From positions 32,001 through 96,000 of IMG/VR virus record IMGVR_UViG_3300023440_000001: DNA of 64,000 bases; one strand, written 5' to 3'. Made by a program: the position numbers and the translations under genes. The notes under the pieces were generated by a model, which was not told the origin of the DNA, made no database searches, and worked only from the letters and a program-made list of their open reading frames with translations. Numbering within the stretch: the first letter of the stretch is position 1; each line of letters starts with the position of its first letter. The DNA is from a virus. This document shows positions 28,350 through 57,679 of this stretch, one piece after another.

Positions 28350-28630
28350 CGTAGTCTTTTAAGTTAACGCAACTACCATTACGCACGCGGCGGCGCTGTC
28401 GCGCCTAAATCCTGTGGTAGGTTTCGGCCTACCATTCGTGGTTACCCGCACCACGGAGTAGCGTCCGAAGCGGGTAGGGACACTCCAGCCTGGCTGGAAT
28501 CCCTAGGGCTGCGCCGCACAGCCCGACGTGCCTTCTGGGTTAACGGAGGCACCTGGATCAAGCTCTGCTTGGCGGCAAAACCGGAGAAACGGCTGAGACT
28601 CCGGGCCTGGCAGAGCACGCGGTAGTCCTC
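28350..28630 (+). ncRNA. Candidate multi-helix ncRNA with kissing loops
   Basis: At least six hairpins; loop TACCCGC complementary to loop GCGGGTA. Confidence 0.5.
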
Positions 28631-28659
28631 CCTAACTAACAAAGTTAAGGAGGTATGCT

Positions 28660-28932
28660 ATGAATAGCCGTGAAATCAAGTTCTTCTGGGGCGATAAGCT
28701 CATCGCCCGTATCTATCCGCTCAAAAAGGGCGGAGTTACGGTTGACTTATCGCCCTACGTCAACCGGTGCGGTATGCCGGGCCACCGGGTTGACGGAATG
28801 CACAAACCGGCACACGTCTTGGCCGGGATCGACCGGCTGTTGTCAAAATACAACGGCCATAAGATCCGGGCCAATTGCTCCGTTGCGGTCGCGGAGCAGA
28901 CCCTTCGGAAGTATATCGAAGGAAAGATATAA
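28660..28932 (+). CDS. Hypothetical early protein
   Basis: AAGGAGG RBS, 90 aa. Confidence 0.7.
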   Translation: MNSREIKFFWGDKLIARIYPLKKGGVTVDLSPYVNRCGMPGHRVDGMHKPAHVLAGIDRLLSKYNGHKIRANCSVAVAEQTLRKYIEGKI

Positions 28933-28942
28933 GACCGCACAT

Positions 28943-28988
28943 GCCCCGCCTCGCTATCAGGCGACACCGGCTCGCGACCGAGCGGGGC
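28943..28988 (+). ncRNA. Mini tRNA-like element (copy 1)
   Basis: 7-bp closing stem + small hairpin + T-arm-like hairpin; covaries with the copy at 31693. Confidence 0.55.
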
Positions 28989-29193
28989 GCTAATGAGGCC
29001 TCCTCTCTGGGGGTCCGGGCAGAGTTTCCTCCTCCTTTTGCTCACCCGGGCTCCCAGTGAGTAGGTTCGCCCATCCGACTTACACCGCTATTCATAGGTG
29101 ACTGCCCCTAGGTTGGGGTCAGTCGGCAATGGGCACTGTGGCACCACGCCGGGCATGTCGCCGAAGTGGTGTCCAGCCATGGAGGAGTATACC

Positions 29194-29520
29194 ATGGCTA
29201 TCTATAATATGGAATTGAGTCAAACTTCAATGTCCGCCCCGAACGGTGGACCTGTATTCTTATTAAAGGTCGGGTTCGGCGACCCGGCAACCAACGCCGA
29301 GATCGTTCCGTTCGTCGCCGAAAACGCTCCCGACGCAAACGGCGCAGTACTGTTAATTAACGGGCCCGCCAGCCTTCCGGTGGCAATGGCGCTGGCTCAC
29401 AAATACGCTCATGTATTCGGGGCCGTGGCGGCCTTCGACCCGAAGTTATCCGGGTACGTAGTCGCCATTAGCCACGATCCCGAGTTACCGGTCGGCAAAG
29501 TGCTGAAGTTCGATATGTAA
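29194..29520 (+). CDS. csx3: Csx3/Crn3-family CRISPR ring nuclease
   Basis: LKVGFGDPA...INGPASLPVAMALAHKYAHVFGAVAAFDPKL...YVVAISHDP; His-x8-Asp spacing; GGAGGAG RBS. Confidence 0.8.
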   Translation: MAIYNMELSQTSMSAPNGGPVFLLKVGFGDPATNAEIVPFVAENAPDANGAVLLINGPASLPVAMALAHKYAHVFGAVAAFDPKLSGYVVAISHDPELPVGKVLKFDM

Positions 29521-29559
29521 TATGCCGACCGGCGACCTGGGCATGTCGTTAAACTGCCC

Positions 29560-29623
29560 CGTCGACCGGGCGACGTAAAATAGGCCTTAGGCCCGGTGCG
29601 GCTCCGCTTCGGCGGAGCGTGGT
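29560..29623 (+). ncRNA. Pistol self-cleaving ribozyme
   Basis: P1 CGTCG/CGACG, loop ACCGGG pairs CCCGGT, AAA linker, UAG, P2 GCC/GGT, GCG, P3 GCTCCGC-TTCG-GCGGAGC, GU site 29619/29620. Confidence 0.85.
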
Positions 29624-29638
29624 AACCAAACAACAGAG

Positions 29639-30004
29639 GTGACCATGATCGATATTAAACGTGCCACATCGGGCGTCTATGCCGCTGGGCGCCTGATGAA
29701 TGACATAACTGCGGCGGCAATTCGCCTTGCGGATGAGCCGGCTGTCCGCGAGGCTATCAAAGCCGGGAAGGAAGTCATCGTTGATGTAGACTTCCGGACC
29801 GGTGAAGTCCGGCTGATAACCAACCCCAGCCGGGTCGGTGAATACCTGGCAAAGGCCGAACGTGTCTTCGAGCCCAGCCAGGTCACCGAAATGCCCTGGC
29901 CGCATTGGTGCCATGCCATGTGCGAAGCCGGGGCACAATGGACGGACTTCATCTACAAAGATGACATTGTAAATGAAGTCCGTGCCTGGCTGGATCAGCT
30001 GTAA
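29639..30004 (+). CDS. Hypothetical early protein
   Basis: 121-aa ORF right after ribozyme. Confidence 0.65.
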   Translation: MTMIDIKRATSGVYAAGRLMNDITAAAIRLADEPAVREAIKAGKEVIVDVDFRTGEVRLITNPSRVGEYLAKAERVFEPSQVTEMPWPHWCHAMCEAGAQWTDFIYKDDIVNEVRAWLDQL

Positions 30005-30014
30005 GCTCGTCACT

Positions 30015-30061
30015 GCCACCGGTCTGGTGACCCGGAACGGGTTCGATTCCCGTTCGGTGGC
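30015..30061 (+). ncRNA. Mini tRNA-like element without anticodon arm
   Basis: GCCACCG/CGGTGGC acceptor, GTC-TGGT-GAC hairpin, AACGGG-TTCGATT-CCCGTT T-arm. Confidence 0.65.
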
Positions 30062-30082
30062 CTAAGTGATTAAAGGAGGGAC

Positions 30083-30514
30083 GTGATGAAACGCATTGAA
30101 ATCAATGGAATGTCTCCGACACAGATAATGGAACGCTATGGCGTTCACCGCGGAACGGCTTATCGTGCCGTAAAGCGCGGGTATCTGTGCCTGGATTATC
30201 ATAAACGGCAGATTGTGATCGATCCGGCACGCGCCGAGGAGAACCTCGACCTGATTCAGATGGTCGTGGAGCAAACCCTCTGGCGTAAGTTCGGGTGGAT
30301 CCGCAATAAAGCCGACGCCCGCAGCGAAGCCATTCTCGGCCTGCTGGAGCTGACGGGTCATCCAGACTTTGGCAATAAGAACTGGATGATCACGGTTGTC
30401 CAGAATCGGCTGCGGGATTTCGCCAAGAAAGAACGTAATTACCTGCGCCGAGCCAGCAGCCTCGACGCAATGCCCAATTATGAGGCACTGCTGGTAGTGG
30501 CGCCTGAACTATAA
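30083..30514 (+). CDS. N-terminal HTH + sigma70 region-2-like protein
   Basis: SPTQIMERYGVHRGTAYRA HTH; ENLDLIQMVV...DARSEAILGLLE...WMITVVQNRLRDF...SLDA. Confidence 0.55.
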   Translation: MMKRIEINGMSPTQIMERYGVHRGTAYRAVKRGYLCLDYHKRQIVIDPARAEENLDLIQMVVEQTLWRKFGWIRNKADARSEAILGLLELTGHPDFGNKNWMITVVQNRLRDFAKKERNYLRRASSLDAMPNYEALLVVAPEL

Positions 30515-30536
30515 ACCCAAAACACAGGAGGTACTT

Positions 30537-31124
30537 ATGAGACCCGTAAAGATCCTCACTCGGTTTACCGAAGACTTTGCGCGCATCTGGGAACCCATGT
30601 GGTTCGAAAACCCAGATGAAACGCGCCAGACAAACAGCTTCCGCGTGGCCAGAGAGTATTGCAAACGCCCACACCACCCGCCGGCAGTTTATCTGCGCCT
30701 TCCAGATGGTATGACACCTGACGATATGATTGGGAAGCTAGTAAACATCGTGATTACTGACGGGCCTAATGCCCGCGGTACAGAACGGATTCTCAAACTT
30801 CGTGTGTTCGAGGCCACCATCGCCACAACACCGAAGTATGAAACCGTTGTAGTAGGTTGGGGTGCTTACGGAAAGTGCGAGCCGGGTTATAAGGAACATA
30901 CTCCAGTAATCGGTAACATAGCTCAGACGATCGATTCCGCTGGTCGAGTTGAGGTAGCTGGTAACTTCGCCATTGTCCATCTGAGTCTGAGAACCTATTC
31001 CAGTACCGGTCGTGCCTGGTCTGATCTACACGTCCTGTTCAAGAAACCGGATATCGATATACCTGTATGGGACTACTGGCGCGGTATGAACCAAATTGTG
31101 CGCGACGAGATCTACCATGTCTGA
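30537..31124 (+). CDS. Hypothetical early protein
   Basis: Preceded by AACCCAAAACACAGGAGG leader. Confidence 0.7.
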   Translation: MRPVKILTRFTEDFARIWEPMWFENPDETRQTNSFRVAREYCKRPHHPPAVYLRLPDGMTPDDMIGKLVNIVITDGPNARGTERILKLRVFEATIATTPKYETVVVGWGAYGKCEPGYKEHTPVIGNIAQTIDSAGRVEVAGNFAIVHLSLRTYSSTGRAWSDLHVLFKKPDIDIPVWDYWRGMNQIVRDEIYHV

Positions 31125-31488
31125 TATACAGATTGTGGGAGCTGCGGCTCCCCACAACCGGGTGCATCTGAGATAAGGTGTACCCAGTTGTGACTATTAA
31201 ACTGAGGAGGTGTGTCATGCCGCCTCAATTCCGGAGGCTTATGTTGAGCCAATTCAATTGGAGGAAACAGCCGATGAAGCCAACTTATAATCTTAAGACC
31301 GCTCGACGGATCAACGACATCAAGTACGCCCGTAAGTATGCAAAACGGGCCGACCGTCGCAGCTACCGTCGTGGAATTGCCCGTGAATCACGGGCTATCA
31401 ATAAGGCCATCCGCCAGGAAGGCAAGATGCTTATTCGCCAGGCTCTGGAAGAGCTAGAACTGTACTACTATTAAACCATGGAGGTACT

Positions 31489-43948: not shown

Positions 43949-45067
43949 ATGTTAAAGGTTCAAGAGTTCTTGAGTGAAAACAGTCTGGATGACTTAAAGG
44001 AACGTTATGCGATCAAGATTAAACGTCATCCCTACTTCCAGAATCTGGTTCACTTTTCTTATGATATGCTGAATTCGCCCCTGGGTGAACCCATTGTTCA
44101 GGAATGTCGTGGTCTGATTCTTGATCAGGATGATAACTGGAAGGTAGTGGCATTTCCATATAGGAAGTTCTTCAATTATGGTGAACCACATGCCGCTCAG
44201 ATTGACTGGAACAGTGCCCAGGTATTTGAGAAACTGGATGGTACGCTGATCATACTGTATAAGTACGATGGTGTATGGCATGTGGCAACCACTGGCACAC
44301 CTGACGCAGGTACCAATGTAAACGGATTTGGCTTCAGCTTTAGTGATCTGTTCTGGAGAGTATGGGATGGGTATCGATACCCGCTTCCGGAAGGAATGGA
44401 TGATTATACGTTCATGTTTGAGTTGATGACACCCTATAATCAGGTTGTAGTTCGTCAAAATGGAAATCGTATTGTTCTACATGGAATGCGAAATAACCAT
44501 ACCCTGGAAGAAGAGAATCCCCGTCTGGCAGCGGCACTATTCAGATATGAATGTGTTCGCTCGTTCGACTTCCATTCCATAGATGAAGTTGTTGCCGCTG
44601 CGGAAGAACTGGACTTTCAGAAGCAGGAAGGCTTTGTGATAGTCGATGCCTATTATAATCGCTTGAAGGTGAAGAACCCCAAGTATGTCTTCTATCATCA
44701 CATCAAGTCCAGTTTCTCTATAAAGAAGGCTGTGGACATTATCCGTAAGGGTGAGTCAGCGGAGTTCATTTCCTACTTTCCGGAGCTGGCGGAAATGGTG
44801 CATCGAATTGAGCAACGCTATGATGAACTAGTTCATCGAGCTAACGGCCTTTATGAGCTCTATAAAGACATTGAATCCGACAAAGAGTTTGCCCGGTATG
44901 CTCTACAACATGATGTTGCTCACGTTCTGTTTGCACTTCGACATGGTAAGGCGCGCTCCCCTCAAGAGTTCTTAAAACACGTTCATATGGATGCTATTAT
45001 GCGCCTTCTTCAGGTCCAGGACCTCGAAAGTCAACTGCTTAATTTAAACACGGAGGATCTATCTTGA
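43949..45067 (+). CDS. rnlA: T4 Rnl1-like RNA ligase
   Basis: ECRGLI, KFFN, EKLDG, FEL, EGFV, KVK. Confidence 0.92.
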   Translation: MLKVQEFLSENSLDDLKERYAIKIKRHPYFQNLVHFSYDMLNSPLGEPIVQECRGLILDQDDNWKVVAFPYRKFFNYGEPHAAQIDWNSAQVFEKLDGTLIILYKYDGVWHVATTGTPDAGTNVNGFGFSFSDLFWRVWDGYRYPLPEGMDDYTFMFELMTPYNQVVVRQNGNRIVLHGMRNNHTLEEENPRLAAALFRYECVRSFDFHSIDEVVAAAEELDFQKQEGFVIVDAYYNRLKVKNPKYVFYHHIKSSFSIKKAVDIIRKGESAEFISYFPELAEMVHRIEQRYDELVHRANGLYELYKDIESDKEFARYALQHDVAHVLFALRHGKARSPQEFLKHVHMDAIMRLLQVQDLESQLLNLNTEDLS

Positions 45068-45939
45068 ATCTGTCCAAAGTCATTCTCATGCTAAAAGGTT
45101 TACCAGCATCTGGTAAATCTACCTGGGCTAAAGAGCAAATAGATGAGCATCCCGGTCGATTCAAACGGGTCAACAAAGATGATCTGCGGGCAATGCTGGA
45201 TAACTCCCGCTGGTCAAGGGCTAATGAGAAGTTCGTTCTGAAGGTGCGCGACTTTATCGTCTCTCAGGCGTTGGAAGATGGATATTCGGTTATTGTTGAC
45301 GATACCAATCTCCATCCCAGACATGAGATCCGCCTGAAGGAGATTGCTCGTGAAAAGAAGGCTGATTTCGAAGTCAAGGAGTTTACGGATGTTCCTATTG
45401 AAGAGTGTATCAAGCGAGATCTGAAACGTCCTAACTCGGTTGGTCCGGATGTCATTCGACAAATGGCTCGACAGTTCAACTTGTTACAAAAGCGACCGGT
45501 ACCGGAGCATATCCCGGATCTTCCTACGGCAATAATCTGTGATCTGGACGGAACACTGGCTCTACTAAATGGTCGCAATCCTTATGACGCTTCTGACTGT
45601 GTGAACGACCTGTTAAACAGGCCAGTGGCTCAGCTGCTTAAAACCATTTGCAGAAGCCGTCCGGAAGTAAAGATCCTTCTGGTTTCAGGTCGTGAACAGA
45701 AGTATATGCATCAGACCTGGGACTGGTTAGAAAAGCATGATATTCCCTATGATTACTTGTTCATGCGTTGTACGGGTGATACTCGTAAGGACGCGATCAT
45801 TAAACGAGAGATCTATGATTACTATATACGGAATCAGTTTAATGTCTGGTTTGTACTGGATGATCGCCGTCAAGTAGTTGAGATGTGGCGCGACGAACTG
45901 GGTCTCCCGGTCTTTCAGGTAGACTGGGGTGAGTTCTAA
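45064..45939 (+). CDS. pseT: Polynucleotide 5'-kinase/3'-phosphatase
   Basis: GLPASGKST kinase + DLDGT HAD phosphatase, DDR. Confidence 0.93.
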   Translation: MNLSKVILMLKGLPASGKSTWAKEQIDEHPGRFKRVNKDDLRAMLDNSRWSRANEKFVLKVRDFIVSQALEDGYSVIVDDTNLHPRHEIRLKEIAREKKADFEVKEFTDVPIEECIKRDLKRPNSVGPDVIRQMARQFNLLQKRPVPEHIPDLPTAIICDLDGTLALLNGRNPYDASDCVNDLLNRPVAQLLKTICRSRPEVKILLVSGREQKYMHQTWDWLEKHDIPYDYLFMRCTGDTRKDAIIKREIYDYYIRNQFNVWFVLDDRRQVVEMWRDELGLPVFQVDWGEF

Positions 45940-56024: not shown

Positions 56025-56151
56025 GGCGGGGTGGCGAAATTGGTAGACGCTGCGACCCAGACGCTGACGAAGAAGGGGCAACTCGAAGCCCTATAAAGGA
56101 TGGGTTATAGGACGCTTCGTCGTGCGGGTTCAAATCCCGCCCCCGCCGCCA
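56025..56151 (+). ncRNA. Oversized tRNA-like RNA (127 nt, G73 + CCA)
   Basis: Perfect 7-bp acceptor, 5-bp T-stem, encoded CCA; weak anticodon arm; branched extended variable arm. Confidence 0.75.
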
Positions 56152-56491
56152 TTTATTAAGGAGAGGATTATGCACTGCGTAGAATGTAACTCCAATAAGT
56201 TACAACGGGAGATGTTTGAAAAGACCGGTACCTGTCCATTATGTAACGGTCACCGCCACATCAGTTTCCATCGCTACGTCCAGTGGAAACTGGGTTTTGT
56301 ACTATGGCTTAATGATGATGGAAATCATGCACCGGTGGAAACTATGAAGCAACGCTGCGAAGACATGATTCTCAGGTGTTATAGAGAGTATCACAAAAAC
56401 CGACTCCCGATTATCAAACCCTATCCACTTGATCACGGGAGTCCGGTAGACGTAGTAGCATATTACATTGATCAGTTTAAGGAATAGAGCA

Positions 56492-57679
56492 ATGAATATA
56501 AGCAACTATGTTGACTGTATGATACTCCGTGTTATTGCTGGCTCCCATGCGTACGATATGGCCACGGAACATTCCGATCTGGATGTAAAGGGTATCTTGA
56601 TACCGCCGTATGAATATCTGCTGGGTATCTACACGTTTGAACAGACCGAAGGTGATATGAAAGACGACCCCCTGGAGCAGATCGGTCTGGATCCAACACT
56701 ACTTCGTAACGGTGGTGAGTTTACTTACTATTCTCTTCAGAAGTACTTTAAGCTGGCTCGGGATTGTAATCCTTCGATTCTGGAACTCCTGTTTTCAGAT
56801 CCAAAGCATTATATATGGGATGGAATTACACCTGAGAACAGGCGGTTGGGTGAGCTGCTGATTCGTAATCGTCGTCTGTTTCTATCTCAGAAGGTACGCT
56901 TTACTTATACCGGCTATGCACACGCCCAGCTGAAACGCATTAAAGGTCACAATAAATGGTTGACCAATCCACAGCCCGAAGAGAAGCCCCGACCGGTAAA
57001 CTTCATGAAGTTCTATCCCCTCAATATACATGAACAGCCAGCACTGTTTTATACCGCTCACATTGCCCTGGAAGATGATCCGGATTTTGAGAAGTGGATA
57101 TTGAAGTATGGTTTACAATCAATGGGTGCTAAACCAATTCCCGGCACCGACAACAAAGCCTTCTTTCTGTACCAGAAGGGCAGGGGAATAGTCGATTCCT
57201 CAGGCGCTCTGTTATCTGACTATTCCTATAACTACGATCCGGATAGCCCTGTCATTGGTATCCTGGTCTTCCAGCGAGACGAGTATCGCTCTCAGCTGAA
57301 GAAGTGGAAGGAATACTGGGATTGGGTACGTAATCGTAACCCGGCCAGAAGTGAGCTTGAGAAGAAGTATGGCTACGATACTAAGCACGCTGCCCATCTT
57401 ATCCGGCTATTGCGCACCGGTTACGAGCTAATGAGTACCGGCGAACTCCATGTTCTACGCCCGGATGCCGAAGAGCTTCTGGCTATCCGCAACGGTGCCT
57501 GGAGTTACAAGCAGCTGATTGATCATGCCGAAGAGACGGAGCAGAAGATCATCGAATTATATGACAGCCCATACTGTCCGCTTCCGATGAAGCCGGACAT
57601 CAAGAAGATTAACCAGCTCTATTTGGAGATGATAGAGCCGATAATCAGCAGGAGATTGAGCAATGAAGGTTCTTATTAG
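56492..57679 (+). CDS. Pol-beta-superfamily nucleotidyltransferase (YcgL/RlaP-like)
   Basis: GSHAY...SDLDVKG, NPSILELL, YDTKHAAHLIRLL. Confidence 0.88.
   Translation: MNISNYVDCMILRVIAGSHAYDMATEHSDLDVKGILIPPYEYLLGIYTFEQTEGDMKDDPLEQIGLDPTLLRNGGEFTYYSLQKYFKLARDCNPSILELLFSDPKHYIWDGITPENRRLGELLIRNRRLFLSQKVRFTYTGYAHAQLKRIKGHNKWLTNPQPEEKPRPVNFMKFYPLNIHEQPALFYTAHIALEDDPDFEKWILKYGLQSMGAKPIPGTDNKAFFLYQKGRGIVDSSGALLSDYSYNYDPDSPVIGILVFQRDEYRSQLKKWKEYWDWVRNRNPARSELEKKYGYDTKHAAHLIRLLRTGYELMSTGELHVLRPDAEELLAIRNGAWSYKQLIDHAEETEQKIIELYDSPYCPLPMKPDIKKINQLYLEMIEPIISRRLSNEGSY

Follow-up and report, generated by a model that had tools for sequence, protein, structure and literature searches.

Introduction

Pistol ribozymes are self-cleaving RNAs whose Mg2+-dependent reaction leaves 2',3'-cyclic phosphate and 5'-OH ends. 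The T4 enzymes Pnkp and Rnl1 have an established role in the repair of nuclease-cut tRNA. A reference for the pistol class is reportedly the 2015 work of Weinberg et al. According to the accessible text of Harris et al. (2015; PMC4604425), pistols commonly lie near phage genes and cleave at the 2-nt junction between P2 and P3, which is usually GU and strictly conserved in length; in vitro, cleavage is fast, at about 10 per min. Another group of phage RNAs, the theta ribozymes, are minimal HDV-like RNAs found next to phage tRNAs, and the phages that carry them are enriched in genes of RNA end processing or ligation, among them an RNA ligase gene, as stated in the accessible part of Kienbeck et al. 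(2024; PMC10879173).

A different kind of compact RNA is the coremin motif (xrRNA_C), which the sections of the literature cited here place in beny-, cucumo- and other eukaryotic RNA viruses (PMC6546385, PMC10520033, PMC10321173). The published motif is GUCCGAAGACGUUAAACUAC (PMC10520033), and its requirements are a hairpin of 3-4 bp with a YGAD or YGNNAD loop, a spacer and a second hairpin directly downstream (PMC6546385, PMC10520033). The spacer is a conserved 10-nt GUUAAACUAC with essential AAA, CU and AC (PMC6546385, PMC10520033); by mutagenesis, U13U14 can be changed and A15-17, C18U19 and A20C21 cannot (PMC6546385). Watson-Crick variants with pairing between loop and spacer (xrRNA_WCC) exist (PMC10321173, PMC10520033, PMC6546385), and coremin also stalls scanning ribosomes and promotes frameshifting (PMC10321173).

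Here we analyse a 64,000-nt stretch of viral DNA (the window; bases 32001-96000 of an IMG/VR record of 136,294 bp, estimated to be 72% complete) from a region present in microbial-mat metagenomes (DNA). One of its intergenic gaps holds a pistol ribozyme and, directly upstream, a knot that resembles coremin. We favor the reading that this gap encodes a two-part RNA processing module, a "roadblock plus cutter", which would sever the early transcript after csx3, and we give it a probability of roughly 55%.

Results

A pistol ribozyme and a knot lie between csx3 and the next gene

Genes of the plus strand follow one another with short gaps from about 22.3 kb to 39 kb of the window. The knot and the pistol sit in a gap of 124 nt in this run, between a csx3-like ORF and the next ORF, on the same strand (Table 1). 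The mechanical start of the csx3-like ORF is GTG 29098, the likely one ATG 29194, and its stop is TAA 29518-29520. On the other side of the gap, GAGGTGA precedes the ATG of a 119-aa ORF, the first cistron of the predicted 3' cleavage product. A protein search with this ORF returned only itself, and it matched no Pfam family; blastn of 28600-31200 against phage records found no relatives, and neither did protein-pattern scans with the downstream ORF and csx3. Because the gap contains no sigma-70-like promoter and no plus-strand terminator-like site, co-transcription of csx3 and the downstream ORFs is plausible.

Table 1. Coordinates of features in the window; paired strands are separated by a slash
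Feature	Position	Strand	Basis
csx3-like ORF	29194-29520	+	Pfam PF09620 Cas_csx3, E 4.4e-07, 30.1 bits vs cut-off 21
10-bp hairpin	29488-29532 (29488-97/29523-32)	+	MFE fold of 29470-29660, z -4.05; pairs checked
Coremin-like H-type pseudoknot (knot), 27 nt	29533-29559	+	pairs checked; pattern search, covariation, model R1
Knot S1, CGAC/GUCG, 4 pairs	29533-36/29545-48	+
Knot S2, 5 pairs	29539-43/29555-59	+
Knot L3, UUAAAC	29549-54	+
Pistol ribozyme (P1, pseudoknot, P2, P3)	29560-29624	+	Rfam RF02679, 62.5 bits
Pistol P1, 5 pairs	29560-64/29571-75	+	letter-by-letter check
Pistol pseudoknot with P1 loop, 6 pairs	29565-70/29592-97	+
Pistol P2, 3 pairs plus G.A (29583/29624)	29584-86/29621-23	+
Pistol P3, 7 pairs, UUCG loop	29601-07/29612-18	+
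Predicted scissile G/U junction, P3 to 3' strand of P2	29619-29620	+	Rfam alignment position
SD-like AGAGGTGA, ATG 29645 and 119-aa ORF	29635-30004	+	ORF list, letters checked
Rnl1-type RNA ligase	43949-45067	+	Pfam PF09511, 8.4e-20
Polynucleotide kinase-phosphatase (Pnkp)	45064-45939	+	PF25109, 1.6e-45, plus AAA_33
tRNA-like gene	56025-56148		Rfam tRNA, 37.3 bits
RlaP-family RNA-repair gene	56468-57679

The pistol covers model positions 1-68 of 68 and scores 62.5 bits against a gathering score of 34.5 (E 5.5e-09). All capitalised consensus columns of the core are matched except GUGCG for GAGCG and UAAAAUA for AUAAAUA, and both variants are common to other natural pistols. An Rfam scan found no second pistol in the 136-kb record. 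From the predicted cut it is 15 nt to AGAGGTGA and 25 nt to the ATG. With known pistols the RNA shares P1, a 6-bp pseudoknot, P2, P3, the 2-nt GU junction and a phage intergenic site; it differs from them in a P2 of three standard pairs plus G.A, as in other knot-linked pistols, and in the coremin-like knot fused 5' of P1. On its sequence, it is an ordinary new member of the known class, predicted to cleave itself.

These results confirm what a first-pass annotation of the region had observed and support its interpretation in part. It had called a pistol between csx3 and the next gene, and we find all the helices, the Cas_csx3 match and ORFs on both sides of the gap; a GU junction is present at G29619/U29620, where it had predicted cleavage ahead of the next ribosome-binding site. 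The S1 and S2 pairs of its upstream H-type pseudoknot are exactly as it had written them, and they belong to a family that covaries (below). Its start of the whole element at 29533 stands, and its end at 29623 moves to 29624, where the Rfam pistol ends.

The csx3 stop is separated from the knot by 12 nt, a stretch that forms the 3' strand of the 10-bp hairpin. This predicted hairpin is perfectly paired (strands CCGGUCGGCA and UGCCGACCGG), its loop encloses the csx3 stop codon, and the last base of its 3' strand is the one before the knot; hairpin, knot and pistol are thus consecutive and without linkers. The MFE fold of 29521-29650 had instead given an 'off' helix of 29526-36 with P1; once 50 upstream bases are added, the segment pairs with 29488-97, and the 'off' helix is therefore a truncation artefact. 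We also set aside read-through or frameshifting on csx3, which would add only about 20 codons, to UAG 29581-83, and for which no slippery site was seen. In MFE folds, GUGGU.ACC at and after the cleavage site pairs with GGU.GACCAU of the SD and start region (29619-29646), and the 5'-OH end left by cleavage could form a predicted terminal hairpin over the ribosome-binding site of the next ORF; this hairpin is not kept in the other knot-pistol loci.

The knot belongs to an independent phage RNA family

The two stems of the knot are separated by a one-base junction, with CU as L1 (Table 1). A scan with a pistol-core pattern yielded at least 119 viral loci, whose upstream flanks were then read. The same knot, with compensated changes, precedes the pistols of two of these loci (L027 and L050), and further scans located it at L125, L107, L142, L143 and duplicates, including a Bacillota MAG contig. 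A pattern for the knot only, in which a pistol was not required, matched at least 119 viral contigs, with up to three copies per contig. Among the matches listed, 135 unique sequences were aligned, the window included and 134 of them from outside this genome.

Since the sequences were selected by pattern, the invariant columns of this alignment are partly so by construction; only the 5' strand of S1, the flanks and 32 divergent copies (see below) are unconstrained by it. The 5' strand of S1 is complementary to its partner at the inner three pairs in 135/135, 134/135 and 135/135 sequences, and one of these pairs is A-U in 64, U-A in 64 and C-G in 5; the outer pair is standard in 108/135. At the second pair of S2 we counted 110 A-U, 22 G-C and 3 others (Fisher 6e-22, a value that ignores relatedness). 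Paired cells amounted to 97.0%, compared with 85.4% in shuffles and at most 50.1% with partners slid, and the covariation score was 0.342 against 0.142, a value reached by none of 500 shuffles. The architecture of the knot is more than chance, and both stems covary.

A covariance model of the family (R1) made 120 matches in 100 loci, 32 of them divergent copies that the pattern had missed. These bring new compensated pairs, namely GGACA/UGUCC, AAGCA/UGCUU, CCAC/GUGG and AUUC/GAAU. The window knot, whose sequence is included in R1, scores 42.4 bits and is the one full knot of the 136-kb record, the next best R1 match there being partial and at 13 bits. G.U wobbles and the constant strand sense of the copies indicate an RNA rather than a DNA element. 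At another locus (L028, 7249-7426) three R1 copies fall within 180 nt (37.4, 41.0 and 20.4 bits), and a match to the pistol pattern lies about 200 nt upstream of them.

Searched at E values up to 10 in the window and at three canonical loci, Rfam 15 gave no match at the knot, and at the gathering score there was none in 22 knot-bearing loci. For want of a match, GP20-b (window, canonical loci and the 22 loci) and the preQ1, SAM-II/V and fluoride riboswitches (E up to 10) were set aside. Theta ribozymes, too, are small and structured and punctuate the transcripts of phages at sites next to tRNAs, but the nested HDV-like strand order (P1, P2, P3, L3, P3', P1', P2') cannot be mapped onto a 27-nt knot and there was no Rfam HDV match, so that an HDV-like or theta fold was rejected. 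The 'drum' motif was rejected too, as it carries 3' terminators and associates with proteins in the accessible text of PMC5737381; a related motif may be listed under a different name in the supplementary motif catalogue of that paper. The knot is an independent, widespread phage RNA family that has no entry in Rfam 15.

Knots follow stop codons and have several partners

Counting upstream ORFs of at least 50 codons, we found a stop codon 4-9 nt before S1 in 60/134 copies (mode 5-6 nt), compared with 61 of 2680 random positions (2.3%). A downstream start follows within 20-31 nt in 37/134. Few copies adjoin another recognizable RNA: a pistol-type P1 comes directly after the knot in 6/134 and a hammerhead core within about 30 nt after it in 3/134, with one hammerhead confirmed by Rfam among the loci scanned (L246); a tRNA begins 2-5 nt after the knot in four copies and precedes it in two. 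In a regex and ARAGORN screen, 128/134 knots had no pistol, and 120/134 had no adjacent pistol, hammerhead core or tRNA. The family thus serves as general punctuation "after the stop", with an RNA-processing element beside it in some cases.

Two further observations concern these loci. The 4-9 nt between stop and knot (L153-L271) is a spacing typical of frameshift or read-through knots, and no slippery site was seen. Other ribozymes are abundant in knot-bearing loci: there are two twister-sister ribozymes in L148 and one in L143, type-P5 twisters at L133/L050 and L258, a type II hammerhead in L246 and a HEARO RNA in L133.

Knot and pistol are fused with no linker

Pistols confirmed by Rfam stand beside the knot at L027, L142, L143, L125/L148, L050/L133 and L107, which with the window makes seven composites. 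In all seven, which come from diverged phages, P1 begins at the base after S2. The composites differ in S1 (CGAC, CGUC, UGUC or GGUC), in S2, in P1 (CGUCG or CCUCG) and in their flanking genes, and in one of them (L107) L3 measures 16 nt. Several are related gut-phage sequences, and the shared zero linker is therefore partly inherited. Our literature search (open papers, supplements excluded) found no description of a knot fused to pistol P1, and the zero-linker fusion of knot and pistol is the new point of this work.

The locus L150 was excluded from the count for want of an Rfam pistol call. At 2527-2600 it has a canonical knot, a zero linker, a pistol-like P1 and UUAAAUAG; the UUAGGC core is absent, and the element may be a decayed or variant ribozyme. 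The gut-phage composites (L027, L142, L143 and L148) carry a hairpin about 20-45 nt after the pistol cut, with an invariant loop UUCGUGAGU and a stem that covaries (GUUAUUC/GAAUAAC vs CCCAUUC/GAAUGGG); the window has no such hairpin.

Fusion is rare, as a knot stands beside only 3 of 98 unique pistols sampled. Pistols evidently do not need the knot, then, and with 6/134 knots before a pistol-like P1, knots do not need pistols either. It could be, and we hold this to be rather unlikely, that an after-stop knot and a before-gene pistol are mere neighbours in a gene-dense phage, with no structural or functional coupling. The 120 knots that stand without pistol, hammerhead core or tRNA and the 95 of 98 pistols without a knot speak for such a view, and the position of other knots ahead of tRNAs (2-5 nt) and hammerhead cores implies that the knot's partner is interchangeable. 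Chance adjacency sits poorly, however, with a zero linker in 7/7 composites that have diverged in S1, S2 and P1 and lie between different genes. The window gap is also not minimal, as 12 nt precede the knot and 25 nt follow the cut. Finally, the only knot and the only pistol of the 136-kb record are the fused pair, which suggests that the two travel as one unit.

A coupled module could also be an allosteric ribozyme, in which the knot would bind a small molecule or a protein and switch the pistol through competing P1 pairings. The size and topology of the knot resemble those of small riboswitch pseudoknots of the preQ1-I type, its loop and L3 bases are highly conserved, and in the window S1 CGAC can pair with P1 GUCG, a pairing that MFE folds use. 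This cross-pairing is not kept elsewhere, though: the L107 composite (GGUC/GACC, P1 CCUCG) is unable to form it and the gut-phage copies have another alternative, which argues against a designed switch. Neither the lack of a riboswitch family match in Rfam at E up to 10 nor the position of most knot copies, after stop codons and without overlap of a ribosome-binding site, is what a switch would lead one to expect, and we regard this reading as improbable. We continue to prefer a module in which a barrier and a self-cleaving RNA act at one boundary.

The knot resembles coremin

In sequence, the knot resembles the coremin exonuclease-resistant RNA of plant viruses. Both have a short GNC/GNC hairpin, a loop with a pyrimidine first and A-D last, and the spacer GUUAAACU-R-C, that is, G-UUAAAC-U-R-C; both show loop-spacer pairing, as in the Watson-Crick variant, and are placed just after ORFs, and in the window a helix, pistol P1, follows directly downstream. 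The L027 knot is identical to GUCCGAAGACGUUAAACUAC over 13 consecutive bases. In the window, S1 with its 4 bp falls within the 3-5 bp range of coremin hp1, and the spacer GUUAAACUGC is identical to the coremin spacer at 9 of 10 positions, the tenth being an A-to-G change that allows pairing to a C of the loop, like that of the Watson-Crick variant. Among the divergent copies, only the first two bases of L3 vary (UU, AU, CU, AA, UA) and AAAC is kept, a restriction that mirrors the published mutagenesis of coremin.

There are differences as well. The coremin loop has 4-6 nt and 0-3 pairs, whereas the phage knot has an 8-nt loop and a 5-bp S2; the window loop CUGGGCAU (8 nt) has Y first and A-U last but carries its G third, where coremin lp1 has it second. 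Pistol P1, with its zero linker, occupies the position of coremin hp2 in the window, and in the family a hairpin directly after the knot is not enriched (38/130, compared with 50/130 in the control and 43/130 when shuffled). The phage knot belongs to transcripts of DNA phages and coremin to eukaryotic RNA viruses; coremin stalls ribosomes and Xrn1, itself a eukaryotic enzyme, and the phage knot is a candidate for stalling. A literature search of open papers, supplements excluded, did not turn up a link between coremin and phages.

By analogy with coremin, knot and pistol might form a cassette that makes a discrete, stable RNA of about 87 nt (29533-29619), which we consider a long shot. A 5'-to-3' exonuclease or a ribosome that stalls at the knot would define the 5' end, and pistol cleavage the 3' end, which would carry a 2',3'-cyclic phosphate; the Pnkp and Rnl1 of this phage might go on to repair the ends and close the RNA into a circle. 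Such an RNA would be to phages what exonuclease-resistant subgenomic RNAs are to flaviviruses and benyviruses, and the knot family, if this were true, would be the first xrRNA class acting in bacteria.

Pnkp and Rnl1 genes are absent from the other knot-pistol records examined

The Pnkp and Rnl1 genes that the first-pass annotation had ascribed to the phage are indeed encoded in the window, adjoining each other 14 kb downstream of the knot-pistol module, and there is an RlaP-family RNA-repair gene besides (Table 1). Just before the latter lies the tRNA-like gene, with an insert of 47-63 nt in or near the anticodon arm; plain ARAGORN makes no call there, and with its intron option it calls a tRNA with a 47-nt insert.

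The annotation had gone on to liken the knot to a truncated pistol P1 and to raise the possibility that the two enzymes re-ligate or circularise the cleaved RNA. In its full form, this model makes the knot a truncated second P1 and has Pnkp and Rnl1 heal the ends of the pistol and join them. The end chemistry of pistols does fit the substrates of Pnkp and Rnl1 known from T4 biochemistry, and here, too, both enzyme types are present, as adjacent genes. The enrichment of an RNA ligase gene in theta-ribozyme phages (Kienbeck et al., 2024; accessible part of PMC10879173) would be in keeping with this idea, as would the RlaP-family gene and the likeness of the knot to pistol P1: each has a hairpin with a CUGRG-type loop and then GACGUUAAA. 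When pistol loci are compared with the knot alignment, many pistols read ...CGUCUGAGCGACGUUAAAUAG... and the knot reads ...GUCCUGAGCAUGACGUUAAACUGCUC, both with a CUGAG-type loop; common descent or convergence on A-rich minor-groove contacts could account for this.

The comparative record, however, shows no co-occurrence of these enzymes with pistols or knot-pistol modules in the records examined. Neither PF09511 nor PF25109 had a match in any of the 4 other phage records with a knot-pistol pair, 3 of them with a completeness of at least 91%, while the same searches, as a positive control, matched both genes in the phage's own genome. PF09511 was also found in 0/50 pistol-bearing viral records, including 0/16 of those at least 90% complete, in a survey that took in 50 of 117 pistol loci and covered the PF09511 ligase family. 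As to the knot, it is an independent family, and in the screen above 128/134 copies have no pistol. We therefore consider the combined model very improbable. Re-ligation or circularisation of pistol products by Pnkp and Rnl1 is a chemical possibility only, and for a story of "ribozyme plus own RNA-repair enzymes" we found no comparative support.

Discussion

The reading that we prefer, a barrier joined to a self-cleaving ribozyme, would work as follows. The csx3 and downstream ORFs would be transcribed as one RNA, and the pistol would cut itself at the predicted junction. The csx3 message would then end in knot and ribozyme with a 2',3'-cyclic phosphate, a compact end-cap, and the downstream message would begin with a 5'-OH 15 nt before its ribosome-binding site, so that the fates of the two messages would be uncoupled. 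The knot, stacked on the short P1, would be a fast-folding mechanical barrier that shields the ribozyme from ribosomes that terminate or scan, from 5'-to-3' decay and from misfolding with upstream sequence.

Two points bear on the part given to the knot. Pistols cut fast in vitro, and the ribozyme may thus not need the knot's protection. The knot also lies 5' of the cut and cannot shield the downstream message.

Phages carry the knot family in large numbers, and Rfam 15 has no entry for it. The conserved fusion with this independently widespread RNA provides a concrete handle on the natural role of pistols; the prediction is that barrier and cut work as a single functional unit where two cistrons meet. 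Stalling of bacterial enzymes or ribosomes by the knot, if it occurs, would bring mechanical RNA roadblocks to bacteria as well and would explain how phages partition long transcripts.
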